Below, one piece after another: positions 18,112 to 56,121 of a stretch of DNA of 64,000 nt. The position numbers and the translations under genes are program-made. A model generated the notes under the pieces. That model was given only the letters and a program-made list of their open reading frames with translations, made no database searches and was not told the origin of the DNA. The stretch comes from Calditrichales bacterium (GTDB taxonomy: Bacteria > Calditrichota > Calditrichia > Calditrichales > J004): assembly GCA_965267575.1 (NCBI GenBank), contig OZ254086.1, positions 2,240,001-2,304,000 of the forward strand, in the 5' to 3' direction. Within the stretch, counting starts at the first letter, position 1; the number at the start of each line of letters is the position of its first letter.

Positions 18112-18144
18112 CATTCAAAATCCCAATCCGTGAGGACCCCCGCT

Positions 18145-19536
18145 ATGAGTTTAAAGTTTAATGTTGATACCGACCTGCTTAAAAAATATGACAGGCCCGG
18201 GCCGCGCTATACCAGCTATCCGACGGCGCCGCAGTTTCACCAGAATTTTAGCGCTTCCACCTATGAAGAGGAGCTGAAACGTTCTAACGCGGAAAAGCCC
18301 GGCGAGCCGATTTCGCTCTATTTCCACCTGCCGTTTTGCGACACGCTGTGCTACTTTTGTGGCTGCACCATGATCATCACGCGCAGCCGCGAGCGCATCG
18401 CCCATTATGTGGAGGTGCTCAAAAAAGAGATCGAGATGGTCAGCAGCCGCATCGACTCTTCGCGCAAGGTGGTGCAGTTGCACTGGGGCGGCGGCACACC
18501 CACCTACCTCAACCCGGATGAGATTGCCGACCTCATGGGCCACATCCACAACCATTTTAGCTTTGATGAAAAAGCCGAGATCAGTGTGGAAATTGATCCG
18601 CGTGGTTTGAGCGATGAACACCTGCCGGTCATGCGGGAGGCAGGCTTCAACCGTATGAGTATGGGCGTGCAGGACTTTAATGAAAAAGTGCAGAAGACCA
18701 TCAACCGCCTGCAGCCGGAGGCACTGACGCGGCGCATTTTGGAGCAGGGCCGCAAACTGGGCTATGAATCGATCAACCTGGATTTTATTTATGGCCTGCC
18801 TTACCAGACGCCGCAGACATTTGAATCGACGCTGGATACCATCCTGGACATCAATCCCGACCGCCTGGCGATGTTTAATTACGCCCATGTGCCGTGGTTG
18901 AAAAAACACCAGAATGTGATTCCAGAAAACGAACTGCCATCGGCGGATAACAAGCTGGCCATGCTCAAGATGATCATCGAGCGGCTGACCGAGAGCGGCT
19001 ACGTTTTTATCGGCATGGATCACTTTGCCAAGCCCGATGACCTGCTGAGCGTGGCTATGAACAATCATACCCTGCACAGAAACTTCCAGGGTTACACCAC
19101 CTACGCCGGCGCCGAAGTATTTGCCATGGGCATGTCATCAATCAGCCAGTTGTATAATTCGTTTGCCCAAAACCACAAGGATATAAAAACCTACGAAAAG
19201 GACGTGCAGGAAGGGCGTCTGCCAGTGCATGCCGGTTACCAGCTGGATGACGATGATAAGCTGCGCCGTTTTGTGATTATGGACCTGATGTGCAACAACA
19301 GGCTGATAAAAGAGGATGTGAACAAACGCTTTGGAATCGATTTTGACAGCTATTTTGCCGATGCGCTGGAAAAGCTGAAACCTTTTACCGAAGACAACCT
19401 GCTTGTTCTGGAAAAAGACCGCATTATTGTGAATAAGACCGGGCGGCTGGTTATCCGTAACATGGCGATGGCCTTTGACCGCTACCTGGAAAAAGACATG
19501 CAAAAGAATAAACCGCTTTACTCACGGACGGTGTAA
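18145..19536 (+). CDS. hemN: Oxygen-independent coproporphyrinogen III dehydrogenase (radical SAM)
   Basis: GPRYTSYPTA, CDTLCYFCGC, HWGGGTP, RNFQGY. Confidence 0.96.
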   Translation: MSLKFNVDTDLLKKYDRPGPRYTSYPTAPQFHQNFSASTYEEELKRSNAEKPGEPISLYFHLPFCDTLCYFCGCTMIITRSRERIAHYVEVLKKEIEMVSSRIDSSRKVVQLHWGGGTPTYLNPDEIADLMGHIHNHFSFDEKAEISVEIDPRGLSDEHLPVMREAGFNRMSMGVQDFNEKVQKTINRLQPEALTRRILEQGRKLGYESINLDFIYGLPYQTPQTFESTLDTILDINPDRLAMFNYAHVPWLKKHQNVIPENELPSADNKLAMLKMIIERLTESGYVFIGMDHFAKPDDLLSVAMNNHTLHRNFQGYTTYAGAEVFAMGMSSISQLYNSFAQNHKDIKTYEKDVQEGRLPVHAGYQLDDDDKLRRFVIMDLMCNNRLIKEDVNKRFGIDFDSYFADALEKLKPFTEDNLLVLEKDRIIVNKTGRLVIRNMAMAFDRYLEKDMQKNKPLYSRTV

Positions 19537-20915
19537 TGGCCCAAAAGGAGTATGATGTCGTTATTGTCGGGGCCGGCATTTCCGGGCTGGCCGCGGCACA
19601 CTTTCTGAAAAAGGCCGGAAAAAGCGTGGCCGTTATCGAAAAAGAAGATCGTGCCGGTGGCGTGATTGAAAGTGAGCAGAGCGACGGCTTTTTGATTGAA
19701 CACGGACCTAACAGCACCATGGGTGGCAAGGAGCCGGTGCAGCGTCTGATTGAGCAGGCCGGTCTTGCTGACAAGCAGCAGTTTGCCGCCGAAGAAGCCA
19801 AGTATCGCTACATTGTAAAAAAGGGCCGCCTGGTGGCCATACCGACAAGCCCGCAATCGTTTTTAAAAACACCGCTGTTTTCACTTTCCACAAAACTGGG
19901 GCTGCTTAAAGAGCCGTTTATTAAACCCGCGGGGCCGGACAAAAAAGAGACATTGGCCGAATTCGTTGAAAGACGCCTGGGGCGTGAATTCCTCGACTAC
20001 GCCATTGACCCGTTTGTAGCCGGGGTGTATGCCGGGAAGCCGCAAACGCTGATCGTAAAGAACGCTTTTAAACGGCTGTACGATCTGGAGCAGGAGCATG
20101 GCAGCCTGATTCGCGGGGCCATCAAACTGGCCAAAAAGCGCAAAAGCCAGGTTTCCGCCGGTCCCAGCGGACGCATTTTCTCCTTTGAAGGGGGCATGCA
20201 GACGATGACCGACCGGCTGGCGCACAACCTGGGCGACGATCTTTTTACGTCCGCCGCTATCTCCACCATTGATGAGGAAAACAATACTTTTACGATTGCT
20301 TTTAAGCGTGATGGGAAAGTGACGCGGCTTTCCGCAAAGGCCGTGCTTAGCACAGTGCCTTCCTACGATTTGCCACAACTGACGCTTGAAGTAAACAGAC
20401 GCCTGCTACAGCCCGTGGAGGAAATCCCCTACGCCAAGGTGGCCATGGTTTATTTTGGCTACAACAAAAAGCCGGACAACGTGCAGGCCAACGGTTTCGG
20501 CTTTCTGGTGCCTTCACTGGAGAAGCGCGAGATTTTGGGCACGCTGTGGAACTCGACGCTGTTTGCGGGTAGGGCGCCGCAGGGTGGTTTGGCGCTGAGC
20601 ACGTTTGTGGGTGGCAGTCGTCAGCCCGGGTTGACAGAAAAGGATGATGATGCCCTGAAGGAAATCGTGCAGCGTGAACTGGCCGACCTGATGGGGATTA
20701 AGGTTACGCCGGATTTTGTGCGCATTGTGCGCTGGCAAAAAGCAATACCGCAGTACACGGAGAAACAGGATGTGGCACTGCCGGCCATGGCTGCGATTGA
20801 GGAGAATAACCCGGGGCTGTTTATCGGCGGTAATTTCCGTGATGGCATCTCGGTTTCCGATTGCATTGTAAACGCGGAGAAACACGCGGAGAGGGTGGTT
20901 GCCTGGCTGAAATAG
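19536..20915 (+). CDS. hemG: FAD-dependent protoporphyrinogen oxidase (HemY type)
   Basis: VGAGISGL, EHGPNS, GVYAG, WQKAIPQY, GISVSDCI. Confidence 0.92.
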   Translation: MAQKEYDVVIVGAGISGLAAAHFLKKAGKSVAVIEKEDRAGGVIESEQSDGFLIEHGPNSTMGGKEPVQRLIEQAGLADKQQFAAEEAKYRYIVKKGRLVAIPTSPQSFLKTPLFSLSTKLGLLKEPFIKPAGPDKKETLAEFVERRLGREFLDYAIDPFVAGVYAGKPQTLIVKNAFKRLYDLEQEHGSLIRGAIKLAKKRKSQVSAGPSGRIFSFEGGMQTMTDRLAHNLGDDLFTSAAISTIDEENNTFTIAFKRDGKVTRLSAKAVLSTVPSYDLPQLTLEVNRRLLQPVEEIPYAKVAMVYFGYNKKPDNVQANGFGFLVPSLEKREILGTLWNSTLFAGRAPQGGLALSTFVGGSRQPGLTEKDDDALKEIVQRELADLMGIKVTPDFVRIVRWQKAIPQYTEKQDVALPAMAAIEENNPGLFIGGNFRDGISVSDCIVNAEKHAERVVAWLK

Positions 20916-20937
20916 CCTTTCCTTACGAGTTGAATTA

Positions 20938-21530
20938 TTTACCATGAAGAGCATGAAGGACATGAAGTGTTTAGAGATTGAAGAGCAAAAAGTGTCAATT
21001 ATTCTTCTGCTCCTTAATCCTTCAAGGTGAGTAAATATGAAAAGAGAATTTAGTGCTTTATCAAATAAGGTAATTGGCTGCGCAATTGAGGTGCATCGTA
21101 ATTTGGGGCCGGGCTTATTGGAGAGCACGTATCATCAGTGTTTGGCGCATGAGCTAAGAAATAGCAAAATAGAATATAAGTCTGAATACCAGCTGCCGGT
21201 TTTATACAAGGGACAGAAAATTGATTGCGGCTATCGCGTTGATCTGCTTATAGAAAGTGAATTGATTATTGAAATTAAGAGCGTAGAAAAGATTTTGCCC
21301 ATTCACGAGGCGCAACTTTTAACTTACATGAAGCTGGCAAAAATAAAACAGGGATTCTTAGTAAACTTCAACGTAAAACGTCTTACGAACGGCCTAAGAA
21401 GTTTCGTCCTATAAAAACCTTAAATATGAAGAGCATAAAGAACCCAAAGGTTTAACTAAGTGGAGAAGCAAGGAAGCCAAGGTGATAAAAACTTCCTATT
21501 CTTCATGCCCTTCATGTCCTTCATGGTGAA
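20938..21530. repeat. 30-bp inverted arms of 9-mer (CATGAAGnn) repeats flanking the GxxExxY gene
   Basis: 20938-20967 matches the reverse complement of 21501-21530 at 26/30 positions; degenerate inner arms at 21004-21030 and 21424-21449. Confidence 0.9.
21037..21414 (+). CDS. GxxExxY protein (PD-(D/E)xK nuclease-like fold)
   Basis: LGPGLLESTY, YRVDLLIE, IEIKS, QLLTYMKL, GFLVNFN; lower GC than the hem genes. Confidence 0.93.
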   Translation: MKREFSALSNKVIGCAIEVHRNLGPGLLESTYHQCLAHELRNSKIEYKSEYQLPVLYKGQKIDCGYRVDLLIESELIIEIKSVEKILPIHEAQLLTYMKLAKIKQGFLVNFNVKRLTNGLRSFVL

Positions 21531-21550
21531 TAAAAAGAAAGAAGACGCAA

Positions 21551-22525
21551 ATGGAATTTAAACCTTATTACAGGCCGCGGCGGCTGCGCAAAAACGCACT
21601 GATCCGTGGGATGGTGCGTGAAACCACGCTTACGATGGATGACCTTATTTTGCCGCTGTTTGTTACGGCGGGCAAGGAGTCCAAGCCTATTAGTAGCATG
21701 CCGGGGCATTCCCAGTTGACGCTGGATGATTTGAAAAAGGAAGTCAAAGAGCTGGAAAAGATGGGCGTGAAAGCGATCATCCTGTTTGGCATACCGGCGC
21801 TGAAGGATGCCGATGGCAGCGATGTGCGCAGCAGCGACGGTATCATCGCCCAGGCGTTGCGGGTGATCAAAGATATCAATCCCAACCTGTATGTGATTAC
21901 CGATGTCTGTTTTTGCGAGTACACCGACCACGGGCACTGTGGGCACCTGACCCCGGACGGCGATGTGGACAACGACGCCACGCTGGAGATGCTGCAGGAG
22001 CAGGTGATCGTGCAGGCGCAGAACGGCGTGGACATGGTGGCGCCATCGGGGATGATGGACGGTATGATTGCCGCCATCCGTGAAGGGCTGGATGAAAACG
22101 GTTTTGAAGATATCCCGATTATGAGCTATGCCGCCAAGTACGCTTCCGGTTTTTACGGTCCCTTCCGCGAAGCGGCGGAATCGACACCGGCTTTTGGCGA
22201 CCGTGCCAGCTACCAGATGGACCCGGCCAACGCCATGGAAGCGGTGCGTGAGATGGAGCTGGACGTGGAAGAGGGCGCCGATATTTTGATGGTAAAACCG
22301 GCCATGCCTTACCTGGACATCATCCGCGTGGCCCGCGAGCGTTTTGAACTGCCCGTGGCCGCTTACCAGGTTTCGGGTGAGTTTGCCATGATCAAGGCCG
22401 CCGCCGAAAAGGGTTGGCTGGACCATGACCGTGTGGCCCTGGAATCACTGATGGCCATTAAACGCGCCGGCGCTGATTTGATTTTGAGCTATTTTACAAA
22501 GGAAGCCGTGCGCTGGATTGGGTGA
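21551..22525 (+). CDS. hemB: Porphobilinogen synthase (Zn-type)
   Basis: [38 protein letters not shown]. Confidence 0.97.
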
Positions 22526-22530
22526 TTCAT

Positions 22531-22940
22531 TGCACCATGAAGGACAGGAAGAGTATGGAGCCGGATGCGTTGTCATCCCGGCCTTCGCGCCGGGATCTTT
22601 GGTGGTTTGAGTCTTGATTGTCATCTCTAATCCGCGTAGCGGTGAGAGATCCAGGGTTTAGCATACTCCCGGATTTCTTAACATTTACAGAAATGACAGG
22701 GTGGGCGTGTGAACCCATCCCCCGGCCCCTTCCCTTGTTCCAAAGGAAGGGGAGAAAAACGCCTTTGGTAAATATCGGGTGTAACGGGATGTGATTCCGG
22801 TTGAGCATGATCCCGGATTTCTCACGTTCGTTCGAAATGACATAAAGATGCTGAAATGAATTCAGCATGACGTTCCTGGCGTCATCCCGAACTTGTTTCG
22901 GGATCTAATGCTTCATGACCTTCATGCTCTTCATGGTGAA
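22531..22940. repeat. Gene-less copy of the 9-mer inverted arms enclosing a GTCA-type REP/REPIN cluster
   Basis: Arms at 22531-22560 and 22911-22940; internal palindromes at 22571-22598, 22619-22698, 22714-22753, 22815-22842, 22846-22871 and 22881-22906. Confidence 0.88.
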
Positions 22941-22961
22941 CAAAAAATTTAAGGAGTAAAA

Positions 22962-24254
<1,293 letters not shown>

Positions 24255-24351: not shown

Positions 24352-25050
24352 CTAACAAATAACATCAGGCCAGCTTATTATGCCGGCAAGATATTCATTA
24401 ATTACTATTCTAATTTCAACACCAGAATTCTGTGATGCCAAATACCTATATACGCCAGGTTGAACGACAATCCATCCGTGATCATTAATATCAATTCCGG
24501 TAAATAATCGGGTCATAGCTCTGCTTCCTACTTCAGGAAACAAGCTTGATTCGGGCTGCGCTTCAAATTCAAATCTTGTTTTTTCATCTAAAGCACACAA
24601 TGGAAAAAGCGAAACGGAATCAGGTTTTATATAAACCGGTAAATGCAACTCGAACAAAGAATGGCCCTTTGCAAGTTTCGTTATGACGTTTTGTATTCGT
24701 TCCGTTTCAGGTGTGAAAATTATTTCGTTGTTTTCTTTTATTATAGAATTCTGAATCCTTGCACGAAGGGATCCTTTCTTTCTCAGAATCCTTGCTATCC
24801 TTTTTCTCATTATCAAATCTGGATCAGTGGAACCTGATAAAACGCATGCCATTAAACAAGCCATATACTCTTCATCAGCCGAAAAACTGTTATTGCATTC
24901 TACGCATGCAGGCACCACCGGCAAATTGTCCGGGTAGGGTTGGTCAAGCAAAATCTTAGACGGACAATGATCTCTTGTTCCCGTCTTTCCGCCGCAAAAA
25001 GCGCAGAAGCCGATTTCTCTTTGATCACCGTAACTTCTAATTTGCTTCAT
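24352..25050 (-). CDS. HNH endonuclease-domain protein
   Basis: CAFCG..TRDHCPSK...VVPACVECNN (CxxC / DH / CxxCN). Confidence 0.8.
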   Translation of the reverse strand: MKQIRSYGDQREIGFCAFCGGKTGTRDHCPSKILLDQPYPDNLPVVPACVECNNSFSADEEYMACLMACVLSGSTDPDLIMRKRIARILRKKGSLRARIQNSIIKENNEIIFTPETERIQNVITKLAKGHSLFELHLPVYIKPDSVSLFPLCALDEKTRFEFEAQPESSLFPEVGSRAMTRLFTGIDINDHGWIVVQPGVYRYLASQNSGVEIRIVINEYLAGIISWPDVIC

Positions 25051-25486
25051 TTTTGTTCAGCAAAAATTTGGCTACAATAAGGCTGGATAAGGTTGACAGT
25101 GTGCGTTTTCTAATAGTCTCGTTTTTTAATTCGCATTGCCACACGGTTAATACCTTCCAACCGGCTTTTTTCAGTTCGGTTGATTTAACCTTGTCTCGCT
25201 CAACGGTTTTGGAGATTTTCTCTTTCCAGAATTTTGTGTTTGTGGCGGGCAATGAGGCCTGAGGACATCCTCTATGTCCATGCCAGAAACAACCGTGTAC
25301 AAAAATTACTGTTTTATATTTGGGCAAAACAATATCCGGTTTACCGGGTAGCTCCTTAACGTTTTTTCTAAATCTGAAGCCTTCCGCAAACAAGTAAGAA
25401 CGAACCAATATTTCAGGCGTTGTTTCCTGCCCATTAATATTTGACATAATTTTAGATCGCTTATGCTTAGAATATATATCTGTCAT
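25037..25486 (-). CDS. vsr: Very short patch repair endonuclease
   Basis: D..SKHKRSKIMS, LPGKPDIV, FVHGCFWHGH, VWQCE. Confidence 0.95.
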   Translation of the reverse strand: MTDIYSKHKRSKIMSNINGQETTPEILVRSYLFAEGFRFRKNVKELPGKPDIVLPKYKTVIFVHGCFWHGHRGCPQASLPATNTKFWKEKISKTVERDKVKSTELKKAGWKVLTVWQCELKNETIRKRTLSTLSSLIVAKFLLNKNEAN

Positions 25487-32890: not shown

Positions 32891-33140
32891 ATTACGAATT
32901 AAGAATTACGAATTAGGAATTAAAGACTGTCATCTCGAATCCGCGAAGCGGTGAGAGATCCGGGGTTCGGATAGCTCCCGGATTTCTCATCCGGCCGCCG
33001 CCGAATTCGAAATGACATTTTCTGGGTCTGTCATCCCGGCCTGTGCGCCGGGATCTCCCAATGCGACCACGATCACGGTCATGATCAAGAAAACATCAAG
33101 ACTTCAGGACGTCAAGACATCAAGACCACAAGACTTTAAA
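32890..33140. repeat. Composite intergenic repeats: 7-mer array, GTCA-REPIN, REP, 6-mer and 8-mer arrays
   Basis: (AATTAvG)x5 at 32890-32924; REPIN 32928-33017; REP 33029-33056; CAAGACnn array 33097-33137. Confidence 0.85.
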
Positions 33141-55780: not shown

Positions 55781-56121
55781 TGTCCTTAAAGTCTCGTAGT
55801 CTTGTGGTCCTGAAGTCTTGATGTCTTAAGTCTTGCCCCAAACCCTGTCATTTCGAATCCGGCGGCTGCCGGATGAGAAATCTGGGATCGTGCTAACTCC
55901 CGGATCTCTCACCGCTTCGCGGATTCGAGATGACAACAACCAGCAAGATCTCGTTGTGGCAAGACGATGCCAACCGGGATGACAACCCCAGAAACTGTCA
56001 TTTCGAACGAACGTGAGAAATCCGGGAGCCAACCGCTGCCCGGGACTCTCCGGCGGTTCGTCGTGTTAAGGGTAGTGCTCACGCCCAGATCTCTCACCGC
56101 TAACGCGGATTCGAGATGACA
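55781..56121. repeat. 8-mer array plus GTCA-REPIN cluster
   Basis: GTCTTGnn array 55781-55835; REPIN 55846-55935 is nearly the reverse complement of 32928-33017; further arms 55966-55984, 55996-56023 and 56087-56121. Confidence 0.88.

Follow-up and report, generated by a model that had tools for sequence, protein, structure and literature searches.

A GxxExxY mini-nuclease gene packed between inverted arrays of a 7-nt core in a bacterial heme operon: a probable selfish cassette of a kind not yet described

Among the described systems closest to the locus analysed here are the REP-associated tyrosine transposases (RAYTs) and their repetitive extragenic palindromic (REP) and REPIN sequences, in which a small gene is flanked by its own inverted repeats, gene-less repeats are found in intergenic spacers, the repeats are specific for each paralogue and no target duplication is made. 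We analysed a 64,000-nucleotide stretch of the genome of a Calditrichales bacterium (GenBank assembly GCA_965267575.1, contig OZ254086.1, positions 2,240,001 to 2,304,000; this whole stretch is called the window below), in which a gene for a small GxxExxY protein lies between inverted arrays of short repeat units, here called arms, in the spacer between hemG and hemB. The likeness to RAYT loci comprises the single small gene with its own flanking inverted repeats, the many gene-less repeats and hairpin doublets, the paralogue-specific repeats and the lack of a target duplication. In contrast, the window protein is a PD-(D/E)xK protein of the RecB/Cas4 type and not an HUH/Y1 enzyme, the repeats are arrays of a 7-nt core at 8-9-nt spacing rather than single palindromic REPs, and the GxxExxY gene spreads across phyla at 51-73% identity. 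The comparison with RAYT/REPIN loci made in a preliminary description of this DNA is thus fair as an analogy of layout, a gene flanked by its own repeats that recur without it. It does not extend to membership, since the cassette encodes no HUH/Y1 (IS200/IS605-like) transposase: its sole open reading frame (ORF) matches PF13366 and no other Pfam family.

It is very likely that gene and arms form a real and general unit, and that this unit has been inserted at the present site. The insert is a probable case of selfish DNA of a kind not yet described. Short of calling it probable, we tentatively prefer a reading in which the insert is a selfish nuclease-plus-arms cassette with gene-less derivatives, the nuclease bringing about the spread of its own arms by acting on them.

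The window copy has terminal inverted repeats (33-nt arms, 88-91% complementary). A repeat search pairs the segment 20935-20967 in inverted orientation with 21501-21533 beyond the gene (88%) and with 22911-22943 (91%), and 21501-21528 with 22533-22560 (86%). With the pattern CATGAAGNNCATGAAGNNCATGAAG and up to three mismatches, five matches were obtained in the window (20943+, 21492-, 21501-, 22536+ and 22911-) against 0.01 expected. A chance origin of the arms was rejected, as none of 100 shuffled sequences reached five matches. Recounting gave the same agreement as in the preliminary description between the left arm (20938-20967) and the reverse complements of 21501-21530 (26/30) and 22911-22940 (28/30). 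The inner arms proposed there exist as well, though they are weak (Table 1): the reversed one (21000-21035) forms a 98-nt hairpin with the left outer arm and ends in AAGGTGA 8 nt ahead of the ORF start, while the forward one, ATGAAGAGCATAAAGAACCCAAAG (21424-21449), is in the repeat search also 93% complementary to 22920-22934. Profile searches identify the enclosed gene as GxxExxY and its neighbours as hemB and hemL, as had been proposed. The right arms stop 20 and 21 nt ahead of the hemB (21551) and hemL (22962) ATG codons, and their GGT triplets end 23 and 24 nt ahead of them. Pattern and repeat searches also recover the same arms without the gene at 22531-22560 and 22911-22940, and a whole-genome TIGR04256 search found no GxxExxY remnant in the interval 22561-22910. 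The cassette was inserted in the hemG-hemB spacer of a conserved heme operon and stops about 23 nt short of the start codon of hemB, while the spacer between hemB and hemL is occupied by another pair of these arms that lacks the gene.

This is further supported by comparison with relatives from the same taxonomic order, in 20 of 21 of which hemG lies directly upstream of hemB. Their approximate hemG-hemB spacer is at most 50 nt in 14, 87-98 nt in three and 244-310 nt in three, against 635 nt in the window. The hemB-hemL spacer, 436 nt long here, does not exceed 70 nt in 10 of 19 relatives. Both junctions are short in most relatives; with hemB at most 72% identical, none of these relatives is close enough to reveal the exact empty site. 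Where the heme spacers of relatives are longer, they contain periodic inverted arms of other types (L093; L096, of TGATT type; L088 and L089), which indicates that these junctions were invaded repeatedly. The flanks of another cassette copy, in genome G009, were not found in its genus-mates G008, G006 and G002. The hemB-hemL spacer itself (22561-22910) contains nested hairpin repeats such as GTCATCCCG...CGGGATC, TGTCATCTC...GAGAGATC, TCCCGGATTTCT and CCCTTCCC...GGGAAGGG, whose motifs are found 10 to 50 times in the genome counting both strands; arm-bounded spacers seem to collect nested insertions.

The encoded protein (ORF 21037-21414) matches TIGR04256 (E 6.9e-44, 148.9 bits, cut-off 35) and PF13366 (PDDEXK_3; E 1.8e-42, 144.8 bits, cut-off 22). 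In RecB/Cas4-type nucleases a fourth motif, QxxxY, follows ExK, and the window protein has the full set E..D..ExK..QxxxY, with G26-E29-Y32, D69, E79, K81, Q93 and Y97. Across 41 sequences G24, G26, E29, E39, D69, E79, K81, Q93, Y97, G106, N110 and F111 are invariant, and Y32 is conserved in at least 90%. The AlphaFold2 model is of high confidence (predicted local distance difference test score 95.9). No solved structure matches the protein by sequence, and none reaches the 0.001 line when its model is searched with Foldseek; the best matches are Cas4 (4ic1, E 2.7e-3, template modelling score 0.57) and 4r5q, and other weak fold matches include lambda exonuclease, the AddAB nuclease domains, Hjc, the R2 endonuclease domain and the homing endonuclease catalytic domain 3r3p. 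Cas4 carries a four-cysteine iron-sulfur cluster. The window protein shares with Cas4 and RecB nucleases the fold and, in the customary motif names, the set E..D..ExK..QxxxY. Unlike them it has half the size (125 amino acids), no CRISPR context and no visible iron-sulfur cysteine cluster, its translation containing three scattered cysteines and no C-terminal cysteine cluster. Because the catalytic residues are conserved, nuclease activity is predicted, and the protein is probably an active, minimal RecB/Cas4-type nuclease.

To learn how general the arrangement is, one genome per species was scanned, which gave 196 confirmed relatives, of which the best 80 (51-73% identical) were used; by record title they come from Desulfobacterota, Planctomycetota, Verrucomicrobiota, Nitrospirota, Bacteroidota, Chloroflexota, Gammaproteobacteria, cyanobacteria, Acidobacteriota and other groups. 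Of the 78 loci whose flanks could be used, 54 have two or more copies of one 7-mer in the 150 nt upstream together with two or more copies of its reverse complement downstream. The usual cassette is about 430 bp long, with ACCACGAAGnnCACGAAGnnCACGAAG leading into the start codon and CTTCGTGnnCTTCGTGnnCTTCGTGGT following the stop codon. The cores are CACGAAG, CATGAAG, CACAGAG, CGCAGAG, CACAAAG, CACGGAG, CGCGGAG and CGCAAAG, i.e. CRYRRAG, and over 86 loci 399 CRYRRAG units are in arm orientation compared with 120 in the opposite one. A quick maximum-likelihood tree built from 84 proteins requires 14 changes of core type, whereas shuffled assignments require 31.5 on average and none of 200 shuffles is as low. 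The CATGAAG loci form one clade, with a Shimodaira-Hasegawa-like approximate likelihood ratio support of 97, which comprises the window gene and loci from four other phyla, by record title Methylococcaceae, Verrucomicrobiota, Desulfobacterales and Planctomycetota. The arm core thus tracks the GxxExxY clade, and this clustering shows joint inheritance and transfer of gene and arms. Linkage alone gives the same clustering, so that it is not by itself proof of recognition.

The genome of the source organism (one contig, 4.73 Mb, 49.6% G+C) contains six GxxExxY genes by profile search. At five of them the flanks are inverted and periodic, with a characteristic core in each case (Table 1). The sixth is without arms, and F-I-R replaces E-x-K in its sequence. 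Elsewhere in this genome there are seven further triple CATGAAG arms, all solo, and CACAGAG arms at about ten further sites, several of which are hairpins of 110-130 nt with ends AACCACAGAG...CTCTGTGGTT. The arms are thus not confined to the window site, the GxxExxY genes elsewhere have cognate periodic inverted flanks, and the gene-less copies that had been postulated exist, as do hairpin copies. Typically the arms lie just after a stop codon or just ahead of a ribosome-binding site. At one site (G000:C1:2664950-2665010) an ORF that by eye resembles an efflux pump apparently reads through a CATGAAG arm, its C-terminus being ...HHEGHEELEGGIK; coding sequence can absorb such arms.

We then compared the left arm with the reverse complement of the right arm at 43 loci. 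Cores are identical at 760 of 791 positions, a figure inflated because it is the pattern that defines the cores and because the best-matching register was picked; spacers agree at 62 of 143. The mismatches comprise 28 G.U, 27 A.C and 57 other pairs. The absence of covariation in the spacers and of an excess of G.U pairs argues against a selected RNA stem and favours motif-wise recognition. These data bear on an explanation at the RNA level, in which the arms pair in the operon transcript and ribonuclease III (RNase III) cuts the stem, excising or insulating the ORF and setting downstream expression, so that arms would be kept for RNA processing or translation control and would have no role in DNA mobility. 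A precedent is the intervening sequence (IVS) in the 23S rRNA of Coxiella, which is 428 nt long, has a 28-bp stem of terminal inverted repeats and a small ORF preceded by tandem heptamers, and is cut by RNase III (PMC4990558). The window cassette lies within an operon, its right arm ending 23-24 nt ahead of the next start codon. Of 34 arm arrays in the source genome, 10 are followed by the start of an outward-reading ORF no more than 45 nt away (12-43 nt, counted from the first core base), compared with six on the inner side. At 43 homologue loci a Shine-Dalgarno motif precedes downstream starts 16 times on the right side and three times on the left, a crude count based on naive ORF calls. The arm doublets also fold better than shuffled sequences (20935-21036, -27.1 kcal/mol, z -3.36; 21420-21535, z -2.11). 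An RNA-level function nevertheless leaves the spread across phyla and the clustering by protein clade unexplained, most other arms in the source genome are solo, and Rfam, like PADLOC and PHROG, returned no match. Together with the free spacers and the missing preference for G.U over A.C, this makes it an improbable account of the arms.

According to the tentatively preferred reading, positions 20938-21530 would be one copy of a widespread, horizontally spreading cassette, in which a gene for a 125-amino-acid RecB/Cas4-like PD-(D/E)xK protein is packed between inverted arrays of two to four units of 8-9 nt with a 7-nt core of the CRYRRAG family. The arms would serve as recognition arrays for the encoded nuclease, a role suggested by the conserved cores, the free spacers and the correspondence of core type with protein clade. 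The nuclease would cut at or near its cognate arms; gene-bearing copies would be the autonomous form, and the non-autonomous forms would comprise solo arms, hairpins and arms that frame other small ORFs. Spread would occur without target duplication, as in REP/RAYT-type or homing-type elements. A nuclease acting on its own arms is the most economical account because the flanking is near-universal, the cores are clade-specific and the active site is conserved. As in homing endonuclease genes, the spread of a small nuclease gene would depend on cutting a cognate sequence, and 3r3p is among the weak fold matches. Unlike these genes, the cassette has many insertion sites rather than one allele, and inverted arms are no feature of homing sites.

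Several facts cut against a strict dependence of the arms on the nuclease, and they weigh against this reading. At the window copy there is no target-site duplication (AATTATTT compared with GAATAAAA), as the preliminary description had also found. More generally, copies with periodic arms as termini show none at the window, in a scan of 118 loci for a terminal repeat with an 8-bp duplication (one ambiguous case) or at the hairpins of genome G060 described below. The clustering of core types on the tree is explicable by linkage alone. Among 86 genomes of the phylum, 65 have arms and gene, six arms only, 13 the gene only and two neither, a table that does not discriminate since arms and gene are both nearly universal there. 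We also know of no strand joining by a PD-(D/E)xK hydrolase alone.

Further points of this kind come from a family in which transposition is evident. Genome G040 (same class as the source, 20 contigs, 93% complete) contains two 556-557-bp copies whose sole ORF is GxxExxY plus at least 12 shorter ones. Eleven of the latter measure 382-393 bp and have lost the central part of the GxxExxY gene, so that internally deleted copies without the nuclease have spread too. All end in an outer repeat GGTAGTGTCAAAAG...TTTTTTACACTACC, and genome G047 has the same element (L126). The cassette lies within this outer repeat and carries its own CACAGAG arms. Fifteen G040/G047 copies are bounded by 8-bp duplications (exact in 11, with one mismatch in three and two mismatches in one), and a start codon lies 22-24 nt past the right end in 14 of the 15. 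No IS1595, IS1, IS6/IS240 or ISL3 transposase was found in G040 and G047; an IS256 transposase is present in G047 only and absent from G040.

A metagenome scan with the 32-nt left end recovered 79 ends, 10 of them with a right end and duplication. These ten complete copies are 160-584 nt long with unrelated contents, apart from elements of 1838 and 1844 nt (L299, L344), which encode a 404-amino-acid IS6-like DDE protein (NF033587, E 9.9e-21, below the curated cut-off; PF13610, E 9.4e-9, above it). A query with the IS6-like protein gave no match in G040, G047, G041 or the source genome. As the same 32-nt end is found on the IS6-like elements and on unrelated short elements, GxxExxY was rejected as the transposase of the G040 family, and the 8-bp duplications and the targeting of ribosome-binding sites belong to that insertion sequence (IS). 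The only proven transposition events are thus those of the IS6-like outer terminal repeat. By their shared ends, the GxxExxY cassette in the G040 family is a rider in derivatives of the IS6-like element, and GxxExxY cassettes can hitch-hike on other elements. The rider protein is under purifying selection, with nonsynonymous and synonymous polymorphism per site (pN/pS) of 0.046/0.374 between the copies of two genera.

The IS6-like element (1838-1844 nt) and its miniatures (160-584 nt) produce 8-bp duplications on insertion and always face the same way; a start codon with a GGAG-like motif before it lies 19-25 nt past the right end in 14 of 15 G040/G047 copies and 9 of 10 complete metagenome copies; this targeting next to ribosome-binding sites is unusually precise. 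Some of the 383-bp derivatives in G040 (L155, L158, L164, L167) have extra insertions of 17 to about 50 nt, for example TCCCGATAGAATCGGGA or a CCCGTACCAGCC...GGGACAGGCAGAATCC block, which are tiny nested hairpin elements.

The G040 family raises the question whether the window arms too are the ends of a miniature IS derivative, i.e. a conventional MITE (miniature inverted-repeat transposable element) of a DDE transposon. The window insert shares with MITEs and their parent ISs the terminal inverted repeats, the intergenic location and the short gene-less copies that outnumber gene-bearing ones, and in G040/G047 the outer repeat with its duplications and the occurrence of the same end on full-length IS6-like elements establish such a relationship. 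In contrast, a target duplication is missing at copies with periodic arms, and the genes between such arms include no transposase from a known family. The window copy has neither the GGTAGTGT end nor a duplication, the IS6-like protein has no match in the source genome, and the 118-locus scan matched only the GGTAGTGT-ended loci L125, L126 and L142 and one ambiguous locus (control 1). For the window copy this origin is already unlikely, and we consider it very remote.

Arms without a cognate nuclease abound in G060, the genome of a relative, whose assembly is 83% complete. It has 193+193 CACAGAG arm hits and none with the reversed control pattern, corresponding to about 190 hairpins; most are 57-176 nt long, have the form TTGC-(CACAGAG)x3-loop-(CTCTGTG)x3-GCAA and lack duplications. 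The only two intact GxxExxY genes have CGCAGAG/CGCAAAG arms, gene fragments are without arms, and no intact gene cognate to the CACAGAG hairpins is found in the 83%-complete assembly. The hairpin loops (L214-L243) contain 7-nt periodic (CAGTTGT)n runs or a nested second arm family, GCCACGGATTTACACGGAT...ATCCGTGGC; arm families do nest inside each other. In viral contigs we found 90 distinct exact CACGAAG arms, 43 of which have a partner at a spacing of 0-30 nt (4), 30-150 nt (23), 150-330 nt (11), 330-520 nt (3) or more than 2 kb (2). None of 80 such loci has a GxxExxY gene, while three of three positive controls were recovered. At two of the loci where the spacing would fit a gene, on the phage-like contigs L349 and L392, CACGAAG arms in the same tight layout frame a 99-amino-acid ORF of no known family (L349:764-1136), adjoining a cold-shock-like gene, and a DUF6527 ORF (L392:2001-2408). 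In the source genome CACAGAG arms flank a two-gene unit on the minus strand (G000:C1:1110551-1111440) that by eye is nucleotidyltransferase/HEPN-like.

Taken together, these loci could mean that the arms are a generic vehicle or boundary module moved or copied by machinery encoded elsewhere, with GxxExxY as the commonest cargo, an accessory nuclease kept for the benefit of element or host. The unrelated ORFs and the gene pair framed by arms fit such a role, as do the cassette that rode in an IS6-like derivative whose deleted forms spread without it, the G060 hairpins, the viral loci and the non-nuclease genes described below that share the architecture with other cores. Yet no larger transposase-bearing element bounded by periodic arms was seen among the viral-contig arm pairs and loci; the type of core goes with the protein clade, the catalytic residues do not vary, and two gene families in the same genomes have non-overlapping arm repertoires. 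We regard this alternative as unlikely, while taking it seriously. The earlier proposal of a selfish element with gene-less forms accordingly stands as far as the recurring arms and the solo and hairpin copies are concerned, but propagation by the nuclease is put in doubt by the IS6-like duplications, G060, the viral loci and the arms around other small ORFs.

The second of these families encodes four-helix-bundle proteins (TIGR02436; PF05635, '23S rRNA IVS protein'). All four such genes of the source genome lie in mRNA spacers between periodic inverted arms, with the cores GGGAATTG, GTCTTGRA, GTGTTANN and GATCAYGATC. Within the phylum CRYRRAG arms are found at none of 29 four-helix-bundle loci and at seven of 29 GxxExxY loci, and a 6-mer is shared by both sides at 14 and 11 of these loci, respectively; other GxxExxY loci have arms of the CACGAAT, TGATT, CAGGATAA or ATCTGC type. 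Like the rRNA IVS, the cassette in its usual form is an element of about 430 nt with terminal inverted repeats around one small ORF and short tandem repeats before it. The window cassette differs in lying in the hemG-hemB mRNA spacer instead of an rRNA helix, in encoding a nuclease and not a helical bundle, and in its arm cores. IVSs have long been suspected to be mobile, and PMC4990558 cites the old idea that the IVS ORF serves mobility. In the window, TCAAGAC/GTCTTGA arrays at 33091-33137 and 55790-55836 have the core type of a four-helix-bundle gene located elsewhere in the genome; they end 14-17 nt ahead of start codons (33151, plus strand; 55776, minus strand) and have no small gene attached.

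A wider conjecture, which we put forward with considerable doubt, is that GxxExxY proteins may be the nucleases that confer mobility on a new class of miniature elements, which make no duplications and end in arrays of clade-specific 7-nt cores. The non-autonomous members would then be solo arms, hairpins (in some lineages hundreds per genome) and arm-framed cassettes with other small genes, and the four-helix-bundle genes would be a parallel family with the same architecture.

The coordinates of the window locus and of related features are collected in Table 1. The last three heme-region genes and the small ORF were identified with NCBIfam profiles. Downstream of hemL, the segment 24352-26742 on the minus strand contains by eye an ORF for a Vsr-like very-short-patch endonuclease (25037-25486) and two further ORFs, and may be a small restriction or defence islet.

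Table 1. Features of the window locus (window positions), followed by related loci in the source genome, in genomes G040 and G047 and in the metagenome.
Feature	Location	Strand	Remarks
Coproporphyrinogen-oxidase-like ORF	18130-19536		Function assigned by eye
Protoporphyrinogen oxidase gene, hemG/hemY-type	19536-20915	+	TIGR00562, E 1.3e-97; host gene upstream; stop 22 nt ahead of left arm
Left outer arm, TTTACC and three CATGAAG units at 9-nt spacing	20938-20967	+	No mismatch to triple-unit pattern; inverted partners 21501-21533 and 22911-22943 (repeat search)
Degenerate inner arm, reversed	21000-21035	-	21018-21035 89% and 21000-21018 74% like right outer arm
GxxExxY mini-nuclease ORF, 125 amino acids, PD-(D/E)xK fold	21037-21414	+	TIGR04256, PF13366
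Degenerate inner arm, forward, ATGAAGAGCATAAAGAACCCAAAG	21424-21449	+	21427-21440 93% like left arm 20945-20958
Right outer arm, a degenerate CTTCATG unit followed by three perfect ones and GGTGAA	21492-21530	-	Pattern and repeat search
hemB, porphobilinogen synthase	21551-22525	+	NF006762, E 7.1e-148
Degenerate left arm of gene-less pair, CACCATGAAGGACAGGAAGAGTATGGAG	22531-22560	+	Three mismatches to pattern; inverted matches 86% and 76%
Interior of gene-less pair	22561-22910		Other short interspersed hairpin repeats
Right arm of gene-less pair, three perfect CTTCATG units	22911-22940	-	No mismatch; 28/30 to left arm of gene copy
hemL, glutamate-1-semialdehyde 2,1-aminomutase	22962-24254	+	NF000818, E 1e-205
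GxxExxY paralogue of source genome	window		Core CATGAAG
GxxExxY paralogue of source genome	804 kb		Core CACAGAG
GxxExxY paralogues of source genome, two tandem genes	4.49 Mb		Core CGCAAAG
GxxExxY paralogue of source genome	1.40 Mb		Long TGATT-type hairpins
Four-helix-bundle gene	G000:C1:4661383-4661703
Four-helix-bundle gene	G000:C1:663360-663683
Four-helix-bundle gene	G000:C1:665720-666040
Four-helix-bundle gene	G000:C1:1528531-1528845
IS6-like family, metagenome	L299, L344
IS6-like family, G040	L125, L142, L150-L175
IS6-like family, G047	L126

In the literature searched, which covered subscription journals sparsely, we found neither a functional study of PF13366/TIGR04256 nor a description of an architecture of gene plus periodic arms. 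A survey of PD-(D/E)xK proteins, in the part available, gives the function of PF13366 as 'Unknown' (PMC3424549), and in the accessible part of PMC8934634 GxxExxY figures in an annotation remark only.

PF13366/TIGR04256 is a large and widely distributed family whose gene is nearly always found between inverted, clade-specific 7-mer arrays. That gene and arms cross phyla together leads to a concrete, testable hypothesis for its function, namely sequence-specific action on its own arms, and links subjects so far treated apart, namely intergenic repeats of the REP-like kind, small 'orphan' genes and the long-standing puzzle of the rRNA intervening sequences. As the arms are placed directly upstream of ribosome-binding sites in operons, they may also matter for operon expression. 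If the wider conjecture above is true, the 23S rRNA intervening sequences would be a special case of a wider group of arm-framed small-gene cassettes that settle upstream of ribosome-binding sites.

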